Source: Octopus vulgaris (lineage: Eukaryota). From it: a stretch of DNA of 64,000 nucleotides. Both the position numbers and the translations under genes were made by a program. The notes under the pieces are model-generated. The model was not told the DNA's origin and searched no databases. It saw only the letters and a list, made by a program, of their open reading frames with translations. Position 1 is the first letter of the stretch. Each line of letters starts with the position of its first letter. Location: positions 1,798,001-1,862,000 of the forward strand of contig OX597828.1 in the NCBI GenBank assembly GCA_951406725.2, read 5' to 3'. Of the stretch, positions 13,290 through 63,702 are shown piece by piece.

Positions 13290-14750
13290 CGGTACATCAT
13301 CCCTGCCTCGAGGAACTGGATACATTCCAGGCCAGTGCCTGCAATCAAGTTGTCGATGTAGGTGTTTCACTTTTCTTACATCACCATGAAGTGGGTTCCA
13401 CAAGACTAATTTGGATGCTTCCAGTTCTTTAACTTATCTTCTCACTCACTTTCGGCGGGCCTCAATAAAGGCATTCATTTGTCATATGTTTTTGTCATTT
13501 CACATTTAGGGCCATTCGAAGCAGCCTTGTGTAGCATCCACCGGGCCCGTTTCATAATTTCTTTGTCAGTGTCCATGTTTCACTGCCATATAATACACTG
13601 ATTCGCCAATTACAAGGAAAAGCTTGATTTTGATTTGCCTGAGCAATATGGAGTTCTAGAGCTTTTTAGTTTGTGACAGGCTGTTTATGCTTGCACCTCC
13701 CTGATTTTGCGCTTCCGAAATGCTCCCCCAACCACCTAAGTACTTGAAGTCTTCAGTAACATTCAGTTTGGAACCGTTCAATGTAAACAGTTCAGCATCA
13801 CTTGATTGGTTGAAAGACTTGTATTCAGTTTTCTTGATATTTGTATGCTGGTCAATTGTAGCAGCTGTTGTGCTTGATTCTAGATATCAGTGCTATATCA
13901 TCTGCGAAATCCAAGTCTGTGATGGCTACTGCTGATACTCTCCGCGAGCTTTGCTGGTCTATGATGAAACTAAGGTTTTCGTCATTGTTGTGTCTACCAC
14001 GTGTCTACAAGTCATTGATGTTTACATACCAGCTCCAGGAATGCGTTTAATATGTACATTGGTATATCCAATAACTTAACACCGCTATATGTGGTGGCTA
14101 TATAAACAGTGTGTTCAGAGGCGAGAATGGATTAGATGGTGAGAATACTGATAAAAGGGCAAACCCCCCGAAATATGGCATGTACTCTCATTACCCATTT
14201 TTGTCTTCGATCTCATTGTTTTTTTTACATCTGATGTCTCAATATGAAGCGTTGTAGCAGAAAATCAGTGATGGCTATAATTTCTATAGAATATCAGTAG
14301 AAATAACCTTAACAAAATTGTTGTCTCTATCCTGCTGCATTGCATAATCCAAGACAATTGTAAACAGGTATGGTGCAGGCGTATGTTCTTGTGGAACCCC
14401 AGCTAGTATTTGAAAGAATTCCATTTCTCCGTCAGTTGGCAGCACACGAGCTCTGCTCTTCTCGTAGATCTTTACAATAGCAAGAATGGGTTCTTCTGGA
14501 ATTCCATATGCTTGAAGGATCTTCAACGTTTTGTAACGAGAGATGCTGTCACACGCTTCACTGAAGTCCACAAAGGTTATATTGGCAGGTAGCTGTCTTG
14601 ATTTAACTTCTATGATACGTCTCAGAGCTAAGATATGAGATGCTTTGGATCTCCCTGGTCTAAATTCGTTTCGATTCGATCTCAGATGGCTATCAAACAC
14701 CGGATGAAGGTCTAACTGAATGCAAAATGTCAGTGATAAAATTCCCACCC
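13290..14750 (-). mobile_element. Decayed RTE-clade LINE RT fragment, interrupted at ~13960-14300
   Basis: ORF 14284-14757 has FRPGRS, HILALRRIIE, FVDFSEACDSI and APYLFTIVLDY; ITDLDFADDIAL near 13890-13925; FKYLG near 13735. Confidence 0.88.
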
Positions 14751-15495
14751 GACTCAACAGCGATTAGTCTAACGAACTAAGAGACAAAGCTACCTAATAG
14801 TATAAGGAAAATGATAACACAACATGTATATTAGATACAAAATCTATAACAGAAAATATACGAACACGAAATACATAACACTACATCTTAAATTAACACT
14901 AGATATATACTATTAAATAGTAAAATAAAAATCCTTGTTAACCAACTACAAGGATATACGCTCAAGAACAAGTTACTAATGACCAATATAATTGGAAAAT
15001 CGATTGTAAACGTAAAAAGCTGCAAACTTAATGAGTGTAACTGTTAGGCTATACAAGTGCAACATTTGCTTATCGGTTCACAATGTATTTACAAACATGG
15101 ACCAATTGCAATGTACCACACAAAACTAGATAGAAAACTAGGTGGTGAACAACACACCTATAATAATACACGCATAAGTAGACGGTTGGCGATGAAAACA
15201 ATACACATAGCATAGCACAGCAAACTTGCAGACGAGATGTCATATACTACAAACAAATATGTCTGATTGCTAACGTTTAAATCTACTGATTCAGTTTTTG
15301 GTGATTTTACTGATTAACTCGGGCTACTGTAAAAAAGCAGCAGCATACGTCCCCAGCATTGTATCATGAAGATGAAAACTGGAAACGTTCTGAATGGATC
15401 TCTTCAAAACAAATACAAGGATCTTATTAAAAAAATATGAATAAAACTTTCACTGGAACAGTTGCATATTCAATGAAATACTCCCAATATACATA

Positions 15496-17234: not shown

Positions 17235-18850
17235 CAGTTGCGGCCAAAATGTTCAGAACGGCATTGTTTTCGTCAGAAAAGTAGGTACAATTTTTTTTAT
17301 CAAAGTTGTTTTATATTCTATAATTTTCACAGACAATAAATACGATATTATTTGTTATTGTCTGGTGTAATTTGAGAGGATAATACAAAAGTTATGGATG
17401 ATTTAGTGATTTACTGCAAAACCCATGCCGGCCAAAATGATCAGAACGGTTGAAAAAATAACAAAATAATCAAAAATGACAGAGAATACTGGAATTATTT
17501 AATATTTAGCGTGAAGCCCTTTAGCTTCAATCACACTTTGACATCTTCGACTGCATGAGGAAACTAAATTTTCAATTTCTTGCTGGGTGATCTTATTCAA
17601 TTTTCTTCCTGATGGGCATTCCATAATTGCTCGGTTGTTTTAGGATTTCTGGCTTTCGAACGTTCTCCTAGAATATTCCACACATTTGCAATAGGATTGA
17701 GATCTAGGCTTTGAGCAGGCCAATCCATAACAATAACCTTTTCAGCCCTGAGGAATTTCATGACCACTTTAGCCTTGTGACATGGAGCATTGTCCTGCAT
17801 GAATATGGGTGGTCGCTTAGTTGAATTTCTCAGCACAGGCAAGACATGATCTTTTACAAGTTGTTTATAAACTCCTGCATTTTACTTTCCATGTAAAGGG
17901 CCCACACCATCTCCAGATATCATCCCCCAAACCATGACACTTCCTCCACCGAATTTAACACTAGTCTTAAGGCATTTAGTCGACAATTTTTCACCTTCTT
18001 TTCGACGAACGTACCTTTTCCCATCTGAGCCAAATAACATAAACTTAGATTCATCACGGAAATGTACCGTTTGCCATTTTTCTTGAGACCACAACACATG
18101 TTCGGTTGCAAAGGTAAGACGACACTTTTTATTCTTGGAGCTGATCAGTGGCTTCACTGCAGGTGCTCTTGGTTGTAGGTCTTGTTCAACTAAACAACGA
18201 GACACAGTTTTTCGAGATAAAGTTTTCTTCAATACAATGCTCATTTTCCGAGAAACAGCAGCAGCAGTTTTAACTTTGTCCTTTTTAACCAACTTTACCA
18301 TAGCACGATCTTCTCTCTTGGTCGTTTTTCTTGGCCTACCTGTAAACTTTGTTGCTTCACGCGAACCACAATCATCGTAGACCTTAAGAATACCATGACC
18401 AACACTTTTTGACTTGTTAACAATCTTTGCAATAGACCCAATACTTAAATTATCCTTCTTTCGAAGCTTAATAATCTGCTGACGAATTGATAACGGAGTA
18501 AGTGGCATTATATAAACAAAGTACACTGCAAATATTCTTACTAATGTTTAGTAAACGAACTGTCAAGTAAACAAATTCAAAACATTAGAGTTCGCCGGTT
18601 CGATATACTAAAACACGGAGTAACAGCAACCGTTCTGATCATTTTGGCCGCCATGGGTTTTGCAGTAAATCACTAAATCATCCATGACTTTTGTATTATC
18701 CTCTCAAATTACACCAAAATCTCAGACAATAACAAATAATATCGTATTTATTGTCTGTGAAAAATATAGAATATAAAACAAATTTGATAAAAAATTGTAC
18801 CTACTTTTCTGACGAAAACAATGCCGTTCTGAACATTTTGGCCGCAACTG
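17235..18850 (-). mobile_element. Full-length Tc1-like transposon with ~215-bp IR/DR TIRs; disrupted transposase
   Basis: TIR cagttgcggccaaaatgttcagaacgg... at both ends with TA flanks; ORFs 18526-17882 (GRPRKTT, FRDESKF, GGGSVMVWG) and 17842-17597 (FMQDNAPCH, SLDLNPIANVW, catalytic E replaced by A); frameshift. Confidence 0.96.
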
Positions 18851-26964: not shown

Positions 26965-29452
26965 GAAATCACTTGGCAAAAATAAAATAGAAATCACTGC
27001 AGCACCAACGGCGGAAGAAGTGGAAGAATTCTGGAGAGAAATATGGTCGGCGCACATCTGAGCAACTTTGGACCCCCATAACAACTGAAGAGGTCACCCA
27101 GGCACTGCAAAGACTAAGCAACTGGGAGGCACCTGGGCATGACAAGATCCCCAATTTCTGGTTGAAATATCTAACAGGAATGCACAAAAAGCTGGCTGAA
27201 AACTTTAACTACATACTAGCAGAGCCAGAGACAATGCCTGAATGGCTCACGAAGGGGAAAACCATCTTAATTCCCAAATCAAATGAGACAGCAAAACCAG
27301 AAAACTACAGACCAATAACATGTCTCCCTACAATGTACAAGGCATTTACTGCAGTGATATCGCAAAGGTTGAACAAGCACCTGGACGAAAACAACCTGTT
27401 TCAAGAAGAGCTGAATGGATGCCGCAAAGGCTCATATGGCTGTAAAGATCAACTAATGATTAATAAAGCCATAACTGAAGACAGCCACAGAAAGAAGAAA
27501 GGCCTCAGTATGGCCAGGGTCGACTACAAAAAGGCGTTTGATAACATCCCCCACACATGGATCCTCGAAACACTAGCCATTAACAAAGTAGCATCAACAA
27601 TTATAAAATTCATAGGGCACTCTATGAATAAATGGCAAACAGTGCTACAGCTCCAAACAAAAGAGGGACTCATGAAAACCAAAGCCATCCCCATTAGAAG
27701 AGGAATATTCCAGGGAGACACGCTCTCTCCACTCCTTTTCTACTTGGCACTGTCACCCTATCTGATATGCTAAATAGAACTGGATGCGGATATAAATGTT
27801 ACGGCAAAACGATCAGCAACCTTTTATATATGGATGACCTAAAACTATACGCTGCAAATGACAAACAGCTGGAAACACTATTAAAGACAGTTCATGGATT
27901 TACCAAAGAAATAGATATGAAATTTGGATTAGAAAAATGCGCCAAAGTAACCATGAAAAGAGGAAAACTAGTTAGGAGTAGCAACATCACACTAGATAAA
28001 ACCAATGAAATAAAAGAATTAGACCAAAGCCAAACTTACAAATACTTAGGAATCCATGAACTAGATAAGACACAACACACACAAATGAAAGAGAAAATAA
28101 AAAAAGAATATTATAGACGAGCTAGATCAATACTAAAAACAGAGCTCAATGCTAAAAACAAGATAATAGGTATCAACACTTTAGCTGTCCCAGTTATAAG
28201 TTACAGCTACAATATCCTTAACTGGACACGAAATGAACTGACCAAGATAGATAGGAAAACAAGAAAATTAATGACAGGATCTAGGATGCATCACCCAAAA
28301 TCTGACATAGAAAGACTATATATACAACGTATAGAAGGTGGTAGAGGCCTTATACAGCTGGAAAACTACTATAAAATAACCACCATAGGACTGCAAAAAT
28401 ATCTACTTCAGAAGGAAGCAAAACTGATACAAATAGCGGCAAAACACGAGCAAAACAAAAAACTGTTCTCAGTTTTTAAGGAAGCTGACAAATACAAACA
28501 AGAAATCATACCACCTAATGAATATGAAGAAGAAGAAGAAGAAGATAAAGAAACAACAAAAGCTATAAAACAAATGAAATCCAAACTAAAAATAGAACAC
28601 CAACGAACCATGATAAAACGATGGCAAGAAAAGCCCCTTCATGGTAAATACTGGACTAAACTAAACGCAAAAGAAATAGACAAAGAAAAATCCCAGCACT
28701 GGTTGAGAAGCTCAGGACTCAAAGCAGAGACAGAGGGATTTTTAATTGCAGCACAAGACCAAATCATCCCCACCGGAAATTACCAAAAACATGTAATGAA
28801 AAGAAATATAACAAGTAACGGCAGAATATGTGGAGATGGACAAGAAACAATAAATCATATTATCTCTGGCTGCCCTGTCCTGGCTAAGGACAGAGTTGAC
28901 AGAGTTGAAACCTACATACACTGGAAGCTATGCCAACATTATGGAATAACAACAGAAAAAAGATGGTATAGGCACACACCAGAAAAGGTCACAGAGAACG
29001 AGAAAGTAACCCGATACACACAGATAGAGAAATTAAGGCCAAGAGACCAGATATAGTTGTCAGAGATCATGAAGAAAAAAATGCTTTCTAATTAATGTAT
29101 CAATACCGGCAGATGACAACGTGTCTCTAAAAGAAATGGAGAAACTTTCAAAATACAAAGACCTGGAAATAGAGGTAACCAGAATGTGGAATCTAAAAAC
29201 AAACAATTCCTATCATAGTAGGTGCATTAGGCATGATAAAAAAATATTCAGACAAATACATAACAAAAACACCAGGACTTACAAACACATATAACATACA
29301 GAAAATTGCACTACTAGGCACTGCACACATCCTACGCAGAACACTTTCCATACAATAACCATCAGAGCATCACAACAAATCACAGCACATACCTAAGGCA
29401 CACAGAGCTGCGCTCGGTAGTGAAGTGAAAGCACGCTATAAAAATAAAACTA

Positions 29453-58139: not shown

Positions 58140-59370
58140 CGAGAGAGAGAGAGAGAGAGAGAGAGTGAGAGTGAGTGAGAGAGAGAGAGGATATAAAGAA
58201 AATCAGGAGGTATGAGATGAATTTATTTCACCAGTTGATATCGGTAAGTTCATAATTGCTTCGCAGCCAACATCATGGGAAAATAATTTATTTTAATGTA
58301 TAATAAATTATTTTACATGTCTTCACTAATGCATATGCTATAAATTACCTATGCCGTTGTACATTTTACAAGCTAATATAACTATAGGAGCTAATACAAC
58401 AATAGAACTAGCTCTTCGGATCCACAAAATATCATGGTAACATCCATTCTTCAACTCCTATATATACACACATAAAAGCTATCTTCGAAATATTGTTTGG
58501 AAGACAATAATTAATAAAAACTGACTCTCTGTCTGTCTGTTTGTCTGTCTGTCTGCCTCTCTCTATTATACACTCCTAATGAAATGATCGTTTCAGATTT
58601 GATTTACTGAATTTCAACTACATACGACTTACATTACACCCCTATGTACTAGTTTACTACGTGGTCTACTAAAGGAGCTTTGTGTGAGCACCATTGAATT
58701 AAATAAATCCATATACTGTGCATTATAGATATATATAAGTTAGAGGATACATTAACCTCTTAAATGGATGATTACATCCAAGAAAACACTGGTTGTATAC
58801 CGTATGTCTTTGGGAAACAAAATTTCTCTAAATAAATAGGTATATATTAAGTATATAATCCATATTAAATTTAAGAGGAGAAAACGGATAATCATTTCTT
58901 CCCACAGCTATTTACATTTATACTTACTGGATAAATTACAAATTTATGCAGAAATTTGCATTTATAAGTTTTGAGCAAAATAAAATAAGAAGTAAAATAA
59001 AAAAAATAATAAAGTAAAAATGAAATAAGGAAATAAAATAGAATGAAAATAAAATAATGTAGAATAGAATATATACATATATAGATACATATGTACATAT
59101 GGACGTACATATATAAAATGTACATAAATATATACACACATATACATACATACACACTCATATATATAAAGAAGCTACATATGAACTTTTTATATTAATC
59201 CATGTCCATTGGTTGGAGTAATTTAAATTTGTGTACATACGGTTAAACGTTTCAGGAAAATATCTAATCATTGCGGTTTGTCAGTATATGCATATGTGCA
59301 GAATTATAAGGCAATAAAATCTTCACTGCTATAAGTAAATATATATATAATTAAATATATATATATATAT

Positions 59371-60033
59371 ATACAAGATAAGAAAATGGAGAAATACATC
59401 TAAATCAAATATCAATTACACGATAATACTCAATCACATACTTTATTAAACCACCACATAAGAGACTGTAGGGTTACATATAAAAAGCAGAACAAATCAG
59501 TGTACATACAGTAGTGTACATAAAAAAGTGTACATAAAAAAGTGTACATAAAAGAGTAATGATGTATAATAAGTAGAATATATATAAAAGAGAATATAAA
59601 TATAAGTAAATATAAATATAAGTATAGATTACAAGTATAGACTGATTTATATTACATAATCTCCGAAGAGGCCTTATGATATTTTTGTAAATGTCTCATT
59701 TATATCTATATATTGACATAGCATAAAAGGCTAATATTGGTAAAATGAGACATACTTATCTACATGGCCGAAACAGCTGTAAGATGTAATCTATACTTAT
59801 ATTTATATTTACTTATATTTATATTCTCTTTTATATATATTCTACTTATTATACATCATTACTCTTTTATGTACACTTTTTTATGTACACTACTGTATGT
59901 ACACTGATTTGTTCTGCTTTTTATATGTAACCCTACAGTCTCTTATGTGGTGGTTTAATAAAGTATGTGATTGAGTATTATCGTGTAATTGATATTTGAT
60001 TTAGATGTATTTCTCCATTTTCTTATCTTGTAT
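59371..60033. repeat. Near-perfect long inverted repeat: arms 59371-59633 and 59785-60033, 151-bp spacer
   Basis: Arms appear identical except one extra 14-bp gtgtacataaaaaa unit in the left arm. Confidence 0.96.
59651..59790 (+). ncRNA. Type I hammerhead ribozyme motif (CCGAAGA core) filling the foldback spacer
   Basis: ATTAC..ATCT-CCGAAGA-GGCC...(ATGTCTCATTT/AAATGAGACAT)...GGCC-GAAA-CAGCTG-TA-AGAT GTAAT; predicted cut after 59781. Confidence 0.82.
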
Positions 60034-60202
60034 TAGTAATTTGTGGTAAATCATTTTACCTTTGCCCATATGATACAGTAAATGAATTGATTGCATCGCA
60101 ATCATTAACATTTATGTATTAACTTTGTTGGGTACTTCACTAGCAGTATATTGGATATATGTTATCCCATGGAGAGTTGCATTTACAACCCCTATCTCAA
60201 TT

Positions 60203-60240
<38 letters not shown>

Positions 60241-60241
<1 letters not shown>

Positions 60242-60405
60242 GCGCAGGAGTGGCTGTGTGGTAAGTAGCTTGCCTACCAACCACATCGTTCCGGGTTCAG
60301 TCTCACTGCGTGGCATCTTGGGCAACTGTCTTCTACTATAGCCTCGGGCCGACCAAAGCCTTGTGAGTGGATTTGGTAGACGGAAACTGAAAGAAGCCCG
60401 TCGTA

Positions 60406-60467
<62 letters not shown>

Positions 60468-60690
60468 CGTGTATGTTTGTGTGTCTGTGTTTGTCACTCG
60501 CATTGCTTGACAACCGATGCTGGTGTGTTTATGTCCCCGTCACTTAGCGGTTCGGCAAAAGAGACCGATAGAGTAAGTACTGGGCTTACAAAGAATAAGT
60601 CCCGGGGTCGAGTTGCTCGACTAAAGGCGGTGCTCCAGCATGGCCGCAGTCAACTGACTGAAACAAGTAAAAGAGTAAAAGAGAAAGAGA
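60241..60690 (+). mobile_element. Full-length tRNA-derived SINE (family A) with internal (TA)n
   Basis: tggctgtgtgg A box, ggttcagtc B box, cttgggcaa core, gatagagtaagtac..ggggtcga block, (GTAAAAGA) tail. Confidence 0.93.
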
Positions 60691-61043: not shown

Positions 61044-63297
61044 GCATAGGTATGTATTTCCCATATAACGAGCACGATGAATATAACTTTATTGTTTACA
61101 TTAGCGATAGATAGCGATCGGGTGCATTATGTCATCATAATTATATGTCATCATAATTATAAAAAAGTTACGGAATATTCTCAATACATAAGAATTTAGT
61201 TCATTTCTATTAATAAATTAATAAGTATTATTAATCATTGTTTATATCAACATAATATAATAGGCTGAATTTCAGTCTATTAACTGGCAAGCATGAACCT
61301 TTCCATAAATTATATACGAATTTAAGCTACATTTATTTCCTAAATAATCATCTAGGATCAATTAAAAATAATTTAGGGAAAAAGAATATCGTATTTATCA
61401 ACCAATGAAAACATATTTTATGAAACATGCAGATTATTACAACTTGGCCTTTGCCAAAGCTGGATATAGAGATAAGATACTGTACAATCGACCACATGAT
61501 AAAAATGTATATGATAGAAGTAATTATAATACAGGAATAAAAACTGAGAAGATTGGTAATTCAATTAAAGATAAATCTACAAGTAATGACAAACGGAGAT
61601 TTAATAAATTAGCTAGTAATAAACTAGAATGTGGTAATGATAATAAGCTTGAAATAAATAAACATCAACCTCTAAATGTAAAACAAATACTAAAGTACCT
61701 TATAAATCTAAGATAAATAATAAGCAACTTTTAGATAATTATGATTATTCTTGTAGTGACATACATAGATAATAAATCTGATAATAATAAATCGGTAATT
61801 TCCTTGAATACTCATACCCTTGATAATCCTGGTAATATTTGTAATACAAAAAAATAAACCACATACCCCTTCTATAAACTTGGCTAAACCAAAGATTATC
61901 TAAATACAAATTATCTAAAAACAACCCTCAGAAATCTAATACGATTTGGCTCATCGCCCCATATGCAATACAAATTAAAAAGAATTTAATGAAACCTATA
62001 TTCAGGTCTCTTTATAATCATTTTAATAAAGATAATGAATACAGTGAAATTATTAATCATAAATATTTCAGAGTTGGTCATAGTTTAACTCGCAATCTGT
62101 TCATGATTATATCAACTATTAATGACAAAAAATTAGATGATTTCTACAGTCATAGAATCATTTATTACAATAATTCATCACAACACAAAAAAAATCTTCC
62201 CAACCTAAATAATAATGCTAACAGCCATACATACGTTAATGATAGAAAGGAAATAACCCATATTAACTCCTCTCTTAACAATACTTTGAATAAATTTATA
62301 CATAAAGATGTAAATGAACCCTGTGACTATAAAGTTAAAATTAATTGTAAATTTAAAGATGTATGTAAGAAAGATAACTTAGTCTACCAATGTATCGTTG
62401 AATCTCAAGGAAAGAAATTCTATTTTATAGGGTCAAGAGAAAATAAAATTAAGATTAGGGTTGCTAACCATTTACAAAGCTTTAAAAATAGACATAAAAT
62501 GAACTCTACTGGATTAAGTAAGTTCATATGGGAAATTTTAAAGGATAGCTTTGGATGTAATCTTAGAGAGAAAATTCTTAGTTTTGCTCATTCATATAAA
62601 TTCTCAAACAAACAATGTGAGTTATGCACCGAAGAAGCATATAAAATCCTTACATCTACGAAGCATTTACTTAACCAAAGAAAAGAAAAAATCATCTTGT
62701 GTTCACATAGCGAAATACGTTTTCTCTAAGTATAATTAAACTATATACGTATTATAAGGTAATATTAAACTATATAATATTCATATAACATCATCCAATA
62801 TTTAGGAGGCATTTTACCTATTGATACAATAGTTTGAAATCAAGATTATTTTACCTATTGATATAATAGATTGAAATCAATATGTACCCATTTATTAGAA
62901 GAATTTCCTTAATCCATTTGACCATAAACTCTGCTAATATAATTCGCTTTTTCTATCTTTATATCTAACTGAATATGTTCGATTATATCTCTTATAATAC
63001 ATACTATATTCAGTTTTATTACCTTACATAAAAAAATTTTAAATTCTAATTAATAATAATTATTAATAAATTTATAGAGATTAACTTAATCATTATGAAT
63101 CGAATATGTTTCGTAACTATTTCTATAACTGTGCGTCATCATAATTGGTGTTGATAGAAAATTTACAGAATATTCTCAATGCATAATCAACACCAATTAT
63201 GATGACGTAATGCACAAATCTTTATCTATTGCTAATGTAAACAAATAATGTATATTCACTGTGATTGTTATATGAGAAATACATACCTATGTGCTAT
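61044..63297 (+). mobile_element. 5'-truncated Penelope-like element (Neptune-like) with inverted terminal pseudo-LTR segment
   Basis: RT-thumb remnants (TGKHEPFHK..NNH, DYYNLAFAKAGY) and a GIY-YIG ORF; 61044-61142 is a diverged reverse complement of ~63196-63292. Confidence 0.88.
61989..62729 (+). pseudogene. PLE GIY-YIG endonuclease domain
   Basis: CKFKDVCKKDNLVYQCIV...FIGS...RVANHLQSF...STGLSKFIW...CELCTEEA..I...LLNQRKE...CSH. Confidence 0.88.
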
Positions 63298-63519: not shown

Positions 63520-63556
63520 AGTTTCTGACGAAGAGCTCTGCTCGAAACGTTAAATC
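63520..63556 (+). ncRNA. Minimal type I hammerhead motif in a PLE-type unit (~63370-63658) ending in (TA)n
   Basis: TTT-CTGACGA-A-GAGC TCT GCTC-GAAA-CG-TT-AAA; extra A after A9; ACGT palindrome suits a dimeric helix III. Confidence 0.78.

Positions 63557-63653: not shown

Positions 63654-63702
<49 letters not shown>

Follow-up and report, generated by a model that had tools for sequence, protein, structure and literature searches.

A palindromic locus of Octopus vulgaris read as a head-to-head Penelope-like insertion from two fixed start sites

We analysed a palindrome located in a window of 64,000 nucleotides of Octopus vulgaris DNA (contig OX597828.1, positions 1,798,001 to 1,862,000, forward strand). 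The palindrome is probably a 5'-truncated, head-to-head insertion of a Penelope-like element (PLE) into a TA run, primed on both target strands, in which the two arms started at two fixed sites of the pLTR and were joined by microhomology; the stop of one arm near a predicted ribozyme cut would then be a coincidence or a minority event. Positions within the element are designated rel; rel 1 is window position 59638, and the predicted cut follows rel 144 (59781). The features of the locus are as follows.

59340-59371, no strand assigned: left target TA microsatellite, interrupted, whose final bases are common to the arm end (from the sequence).
59371-59633, minus strand: inverted arm, a pLTR copy that begins at the short start site (rel 396) and stops at rel 148, 3 nt before the predicted cut, with one additional 14-nt unit (from arm mapping).
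59634-59641, no strand assigned: junction, comprising AGTA (non-family), AGTATAGA (a re-copy of rel 153-160, close to where the arm ends) and TAGA (shared with the first bases of the direct arm as a 4-nt microhomology).
59638-60206, plus strand: direct arm (rel 1-569), the element's 3' end with its 5' part truncated, reaching from the long start site at rel 569 through the uncut hammerhead to rel 1; 97-99% identity to 39 other scored places.
59652-59790, plus strand: type I hammerhead-like motif with a U4C core, a stem II of ~100 nt, a palindromic ACAGCTGT stem III and a predicted GUA cut after 59781.
60034-60206, plus strand: 173-nt tail spanning the interval from one fixed start site to the other, confined to the direct arm.
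60205-60238, no strand assigned: right target TA microsatellite, 17 units.

The inverted repeat is made of two blocks without mismatches, an outer block of 142 nt (59371-59512 paired with 60033-59892) and an inner block of 107 nt (59527-59633 paired with 59891-59785), totalling 249 nt plus the additional 14-nt unit of the left arm; a spacer of 151 nt separates the arms. These 249 identical nucleotides, together with the lack of any genomic match to a control pattern (see below), exclude a chance origin. The initial annotation had reported arms matching except for one 14-bp unit, a right arm beginning 4 nt past the predicted GUA cut (59785 against 59781), a duplicated aagtataga at the junction, and a unit devoid of ORFs and bounded by (TA)n. 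All of this was borne out in the assembled sequence: aagtataga is found at 59620-59628 and again at 59633-59641, TA runs are present on both sides, and no ORF of at least 150 aa overlaps the palindrome unit among the window ORFs. It had overlooked that the ribozyme core is of the U4C type and that 60034-60206, the tail of the right arm, is element sequence too.

The window arms show no difference over 249 sites; in 53 other pairs, 172 of 8047 sites (2.1%) differ between the arms, and the probability of finding zero differences at this typical divergence is ~0.005. This low value, together with contigs of 3 sequencing runs that gave no match across 59591-59632 and with 0 placed raw reads, is what could be put forward for an artefact of assembly or polishing, either of the palindrome or of its perfect identity. 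Such an origin is very improbable, however, since the arms differ by the 14-nt unit, the copy obeys the start-site rule described below, the structure recurs at 147 loci and 6 of the 53 other pairs also show zero differences, although over shorter overlaps. The window copy carries 4 private substitutions, all outside the duplicated part; the probability of this placement is 0.02 if they arose after insertion and 0.10 if they were inherited from the source. These observations are best explained by a young insertion whose source was slightly diverged, and gene conversion or polishing may have contributed to the identity of the arms. The very recent event proposed earlier is thus plausible from arm identity, but the position of the private substitutions leaves it unproven.

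The family was searched in a genome of 2.8 Gb in 227 contigs. The spacer and arm together returned 1533 candidates, the best 40 of which were scored (97-100% identity), and the junction of the window copy was unique among these 40. A 24-mer of the pLTR had at least 979 exact matches genome-wide, against 0 for the backwards control pattern. In 29 of the 29 other copies first fetched, family sequence extended upstream past the break of the window copy, into a full RT-EN element, which contradicts the previous description of the element as non-autonomous. A non-autonomous retrozyme or foldback element, a fixed non-coding unit present in tandem monomers or in numerous identical palindromes, was likewise rejected, since the junction is unique among the scored copies and the family continues into a coding element.

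One full-length copy (L033) contains an inverted pLTR piece from rel 396 to 171, a direct pLTR (134-569), and RT and EN frames; its 3' part consists of ~2.4 kb of 3' sequence and then the hammerhead-bearing pLTR. The complete unit measures ~5.1 kb (rel -4528 to 569). Its protein, spread over two overlapping frames, contains the motifs FDI, GSPDS, YRDD and VVY..YIG, as well as the Hydra-type motifs RWK, DKT, a CxCX5C linker and CxxC (CSLCTNE). GxKF/Y and CX2-5CxxC are absent from it, as in the Hydra clade, and no H-x(3-6)-H pair is present in the EN frame (CCHH absent); the CxH (CLH) that with CxxC surrounds the conserved E and N was read in another copy, L035, and not in the L033 frame. The atlas neighbours of the L033 RT were RT-like clusters (0.94-0.96); a Pfam search of both frames returned 0 families and a PDB sequence search with the L033 protein gave nothing below E 0.1. 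An assignment to Neptune was dropped after the protein motif check had given Hydra-clade marks. Judged from these motifs, this young family is a Hydra-clade EN+ PLE with an RT and GIY-YIG parent; the window copy is a 5'-truncated head-to-head insertion of this coding family. The proposal of a PLE insertion carrying an inverted pLTR segment and a hammerhead was upheld.

The features shared with the Hydra clade (PMC8557442) are RWK, DKT, the CxCX5C linker, CxxC before a conserved E, CxH (in L035), a C-terminal GIY-YIG, TA targets and a hammerhead. The clade is given there as "generally <3 kb", a typical and non-defining length, against a unit of ~5.1 kb here with a 3' region of ~2.4 kb; the U4C core and the stem II of ~100 nt also set the hammerhead of this family apart from those of the clade. 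Hydra-1_Obim, from Octopus bimaculoides, is among the Hydra members in the supplement of PMC8557442.

Outer ends were recorded in a census of 400 arms at 290 loci, drawn from three pattern-based samples and including arms split by later insertions. The census includes L041 and L042, both with ends near the cut; it counts L038-L040 and L043-L050, which had been chosen by junction likeness, and L003-L030, chosen as full-length matches, only where a pattern sample also drew them. We used 83 of the 85 first-listed loci, and one listed locus and four unlisted matches of the later samples were left out. Pattern counts of the 14-nt units gave ambiguous lengths and were excluded from the results. The outer end lay at or near rel 396 for 253 of the 400 arms and at or near rel 569 for 132, the remaining 15 being elsewhere. 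An inverted partner was present at 147 of the 290 loci. Both ends lay at a fixed site in 123 pairs, and in 122 of these each of the two sites, which are 173 nt apart, was used by one arm; in 33 of 156 pair records an end lay at neither. The window copy obeys this rule, with one arm starting from each site. A TA run adjoined 206 of 251 fixed-site outer ends. In the window copy both ends are within TA runs, which would hide any TSD. Each start site has TTGTA as its final bases, of which 2-3 could pair with a TA target. Neither a count of the one-of-each rule nor a mapping of inversion breakpoints against the hammerhead cut was found in the published texts searched, mostly open-access main texts.

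A separate observation concerns locus L114 (G000:C1:198.20 Mb), where five motif matches are clustered. It holds the sole 396/396 pair and a 569/569 pair of the first mapping, with a common inner end at rel 172, and looks like a later local rearrangement.

The junctions between arms were then classified: 57 of 113 showed a microhomology overlap, 15 were blunt and 41 contained inserts. A locally templated piece was found in 13 of the 18 inserts of at least 6 nt, some rows being mapping artefacts, and similar inserts also occur at junctions elsewhere along the element. The aagtataga duplication of the window reads as the product of such events, a local re-copy of rel 153-160 combined with a 4-nt microhomology with rel 1-4. 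Across 433 diagnostic sites, partner arms were discordant at 35, where a random pairing of arms would give 133. This suggests that both arms are usually copied from one source element, while the 35 discordant sites may reflect pairs that used two templates. Two loci with unrelated flanks, L082 (974-1081) and L402 (1424-1531), have an identical two-armed structure and an identical junction with 5-nt microhomology, representing either a recurrent join or the re-copying of a whole two-armed unit.

Among the 226 paired arms, inner ends were spread between rel -413 and rel 360; 6 fell at rel 143-148, the position of the predicted cut (2.7 expected, p 0.06). In total, 173 of 197 arms (88%) passed the cut, and both arms did so in 8 of 88 pairs (5.25 expected). 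The ribozyme-defined template ends proposed in the initial annotation consequently fail as a rule, and the suggested comparison of inversion breakpoints with the cut site yielded scattered positions, largely the outcome named there as refuting; what remains is a small excess of ends just 3' of the cut, which may reflect a minor effect. In the first sample, 11 ends fell within rel 143-156 against 2.7 expected. Following this excess, the windows for the second and third samples were fixed in advance. The test failed in the second sample (rel 143-156, 8/113 against 5.6 expected, p 0.21) and also in the primary window of the third (rel 143-180, 5/31, p 0.69), whose secondary window (rel 143-156) gave p 0.046. 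The two independent samples together gave 13 ends against 7.4 expected in rel 143-156 (one-sided p 0.044), a value which becomes ~0.09 if L402 and L082, with their common junction, are counted once. When all samples were pooled, this interval contained 24 ends against 10.1 expected, an excess of ~14 among 197 arms, whereas the adjacent rel 129-142 was depleted (4 ends against 10.2 expected). Ends at the cut itself were not enriched (rel 143-148, 7 against 4.4 expected, p 0.16).

These data bear on a variant of the same insertion, in which the inverted arm stopped on a template RNA cut by the ribozyme, with a 5' end at rel 145, and lost a few bases by trimming at joining, as a minority (~7%) of arms would. 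Besides the pooled excess, the drop just 5' of the cut and the paired arms at rel 143-148, this variant can account for the best 38-nt window for the excess, which starts at rel 146, and for the persistence of the excess after TA-run and AT-content covariates were included. CUGA, GAAA and a covarying stem II are moreover kept in sister families, and L038 runs off repeatedly at rel 145. We nevertheless consider it unlikely for the window copy. Both tests fixed in advance failed, 10 of the 24 ends in rel 143-156 lie at a single TATA spot (rel 155), and the significance is weakened by counting L082 and L402 once. In addition, of the 20 own-subfamily arms extending as far as rel 156, none stopped within 143-156 (refinement shifts L157 to 146), the core is of the U4C type in 98 of 112 motifs, and the right arm of the window was itself copied from uncut RNA. 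By background alone, arms past rel 293 end at rel 145-148 at a rate of ~0.8%, and several such ends are therefore expected among ~1000 arms. Uncut RNA is the usual template; a further ~7% of ends may come from cutting, from stalling at stem I or from a transcription start, and the stop of the window arm near the cut is likely a coincidence or a minority event.

At the hand-picked locus L038 (2229-2400), the inner end of either arm is rel 145, immediately past the predicted cut, and the terminal 19 nt are copied twice more, in tandem, between the arms. The sequence AGAT-GTA-ATCT at rel 145-155 can be drawn as a small hairpin (-0.4 kcal/mol as DNA), and its AGAT/ATCT stem could offer an alternative account of these ends. 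Two subfamilies (L068, L080, L085, L086, L118, L120; rel -42 to 21) lack 64 nt immediately 5' of the hammerhead core, a deletion present in 34 of 37 arms scored. Their use as a dead-ribozyme control was rejected, a 7-bp stem I being still possible by eye; they showed the same weak excess.

The inverted arm might otherwise have arisen by fold-back and self-priming of one cDNA or of an antisense template, as PMC3846280 proposes for self-priming and as the AGAT-GTA-ATCT hairpin would permit, or from an RT stalled at the foot of the folded hammerhead, the foot of stem I coinciding with the weak excess of ends. Fold-back predicts a centred palindrome, whereas in the window copy, as in most pairs, the two inner ends differ, and the arms of 25 of 88 pairs had no overlap. 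In 122 of 123 pairs, moreover, the inverted arm reaches the other fixed site and abuts a TA run there, for which fold-back gives no reason. We consider this origin quite improbable, and two-strand priming fits the pairs without overlap better.

The motif of the window comprises, on the plus strand, CCGAAGA (59663-59669), a stem II with GGCC at 59670-59673 and 59766-59769 around a long hairpin, and GAAACAGCTGTA (59770-59781). The hammerhead reported in the spacer is hence present as a motif, with GAAA and GUA, but its core departs from CUGAnGA (U4C), and Rfam at gathering score gave 0 matches over the entire window. Of 112 family cores tabulated, 98 were of the U4C type, 5 were CUGA and 9 were other; CUGA is retained, with GAAA and the covarying inner stem II, in the sister families, which are ~80% identical. 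In the inner stem II hairpin, 92% of cells were paired and 3 of 10 pairs had changed on both sides, in an alignment of 5 rows from ~3 lineages with one stem I pair out of register. The hammerhead fold looks inherited and real, on these few lineages. Stem III was predicted to be stable as a dimer (-11.1 kcal/mol). When the whole unit was folded (-417 kcal/mol), the left arm paired from 59785 on; this occupied the 3' strand of stem I and abolished the hammerhead fold. The self-cleaving loop cap imagined earlier is doubtful because of the U4C core, the dimer-type stem III and the capture of part of stem I by the fold-back arm; a read-through transcript is predicted to form a long hairpin in which cleavage of the loop would be unlikely. 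Palindromic stems III needing a partner copy are likewise found in the minimal or dimeric type I hammerheads of metazoan PLEs (PMC4209133), and PLE motifs of this kind cut poorly in vitro (PMC4209133), from which low activity is expected. U4C is known as a natural viroid variant, tolerated there, with lower in vitro activity (PMC3088659); here it is fixed across a family of ~1000 copies.

For the preferred reading, two-strand priming from fixed sites, the following course can be proposed. The endonuclease would cut both target strands within the TA run, and each target 3' end would prime reverse transcription on pLTR RNA, with rel 396 as the start for one and rel 569 for the other, presumably through a dimeric enzyme. 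The two cDNAs would stop at scattered points and be joined head to head via 1-5 nt of microhomology or short templated inserts. With the PLE of the anole (PMC11167929), both strands were cleaved and extended in vitro, two internal start sites were used and unprocessed RNA served as template. No difference in start site between the strands was however seen in that system, which speaks against the model, and the one-of-each rule is absent from the main text of PMC11167929. Also against the model, PMC3846280 explains head-to-head palindromes by self-priming on an antisense template. A stronger version, in which a dimeric enzyme obligately starts two cDNAs 173 nt apart on one RNA, one site per strand, while the U4C hammerhead still cuts a small share of the RNA in vivo, both being recorded at this locus, is conceivable but rather doubtful.

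Much of this architecture is already known: the inverted pLTR, the one-sided tail and microhomology joins have been described (PMC3846280, PMC8557442). EN+ PLE units such as Pen2a_Av (PMC3846280, PMC8557442) have, as here, an inverted head-to-head 5' copy, a tail at one end, microhomology at the 5' junction and AT-rich targets. Their tails measure 30-40 nt against 173 nt here, and our locus differs from them in having no discernible TSD in the TA run and in the counted one-of-each rule (122/123). Poseidon of Anolis (PAc, PMC11167929) shares AT-rich targets and two internal start sites that define a tail, and its insertion needs no RNA cleavage, which matches the read-through of the cut here; it belongs to a different clade, and in the present family the start sites are 173 nt apart and located upstream of the ORF. 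New here are the greater tail length, the fixation of the U4C core and the counts of ends and pairs. Similar scars number in the hundreds, and this locus is one of them. The family is of use for two questions, how PLEs build their inverted ends and what role their hammerheads play. The near-strict rule of one short and one long arm (122/123) bears on the first. For the second, 88% of arms from uncut RNA and a ~7% excess of ends near the cut set a ceiling on ribozyme involvement, in agreement with unprocessed RNA as the main template in vitro (PMC11167929).

Other sequences related to mobile elements were noted in the window. An older, second PLE endonuclease frame fragment lies at 61878-62729 on the plus strand, with 37% identity over 278 aa to the L033 EN frame, and probably belongs to another Hydra-type family. 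A short hammerhead-like motif at 63526-63552 (plus strand), with a canonical CTGACGA core, a GAGC/GCTC stem II, GAAA and GTTA, precedes by ~100 nt a TA run at 63658 and is likely the end of another PLE family. We take the frame at 26991-29056 (plus strand) to resemble a LINE reverse transcriptase, that at 17882-18547 (minus strand) a Tc1-type transposase and that at 14284-14763 (minus strand) another RT fragment. Directly 3' of the right TA run, a GC-richer repeat occupies 60239-60665, interrupted by a TA run at 60404-60464; it is presumably SINE-like, and ARAGORN found no tRNA in it. Pieces of this repeat also adjoin several other copies of the family.
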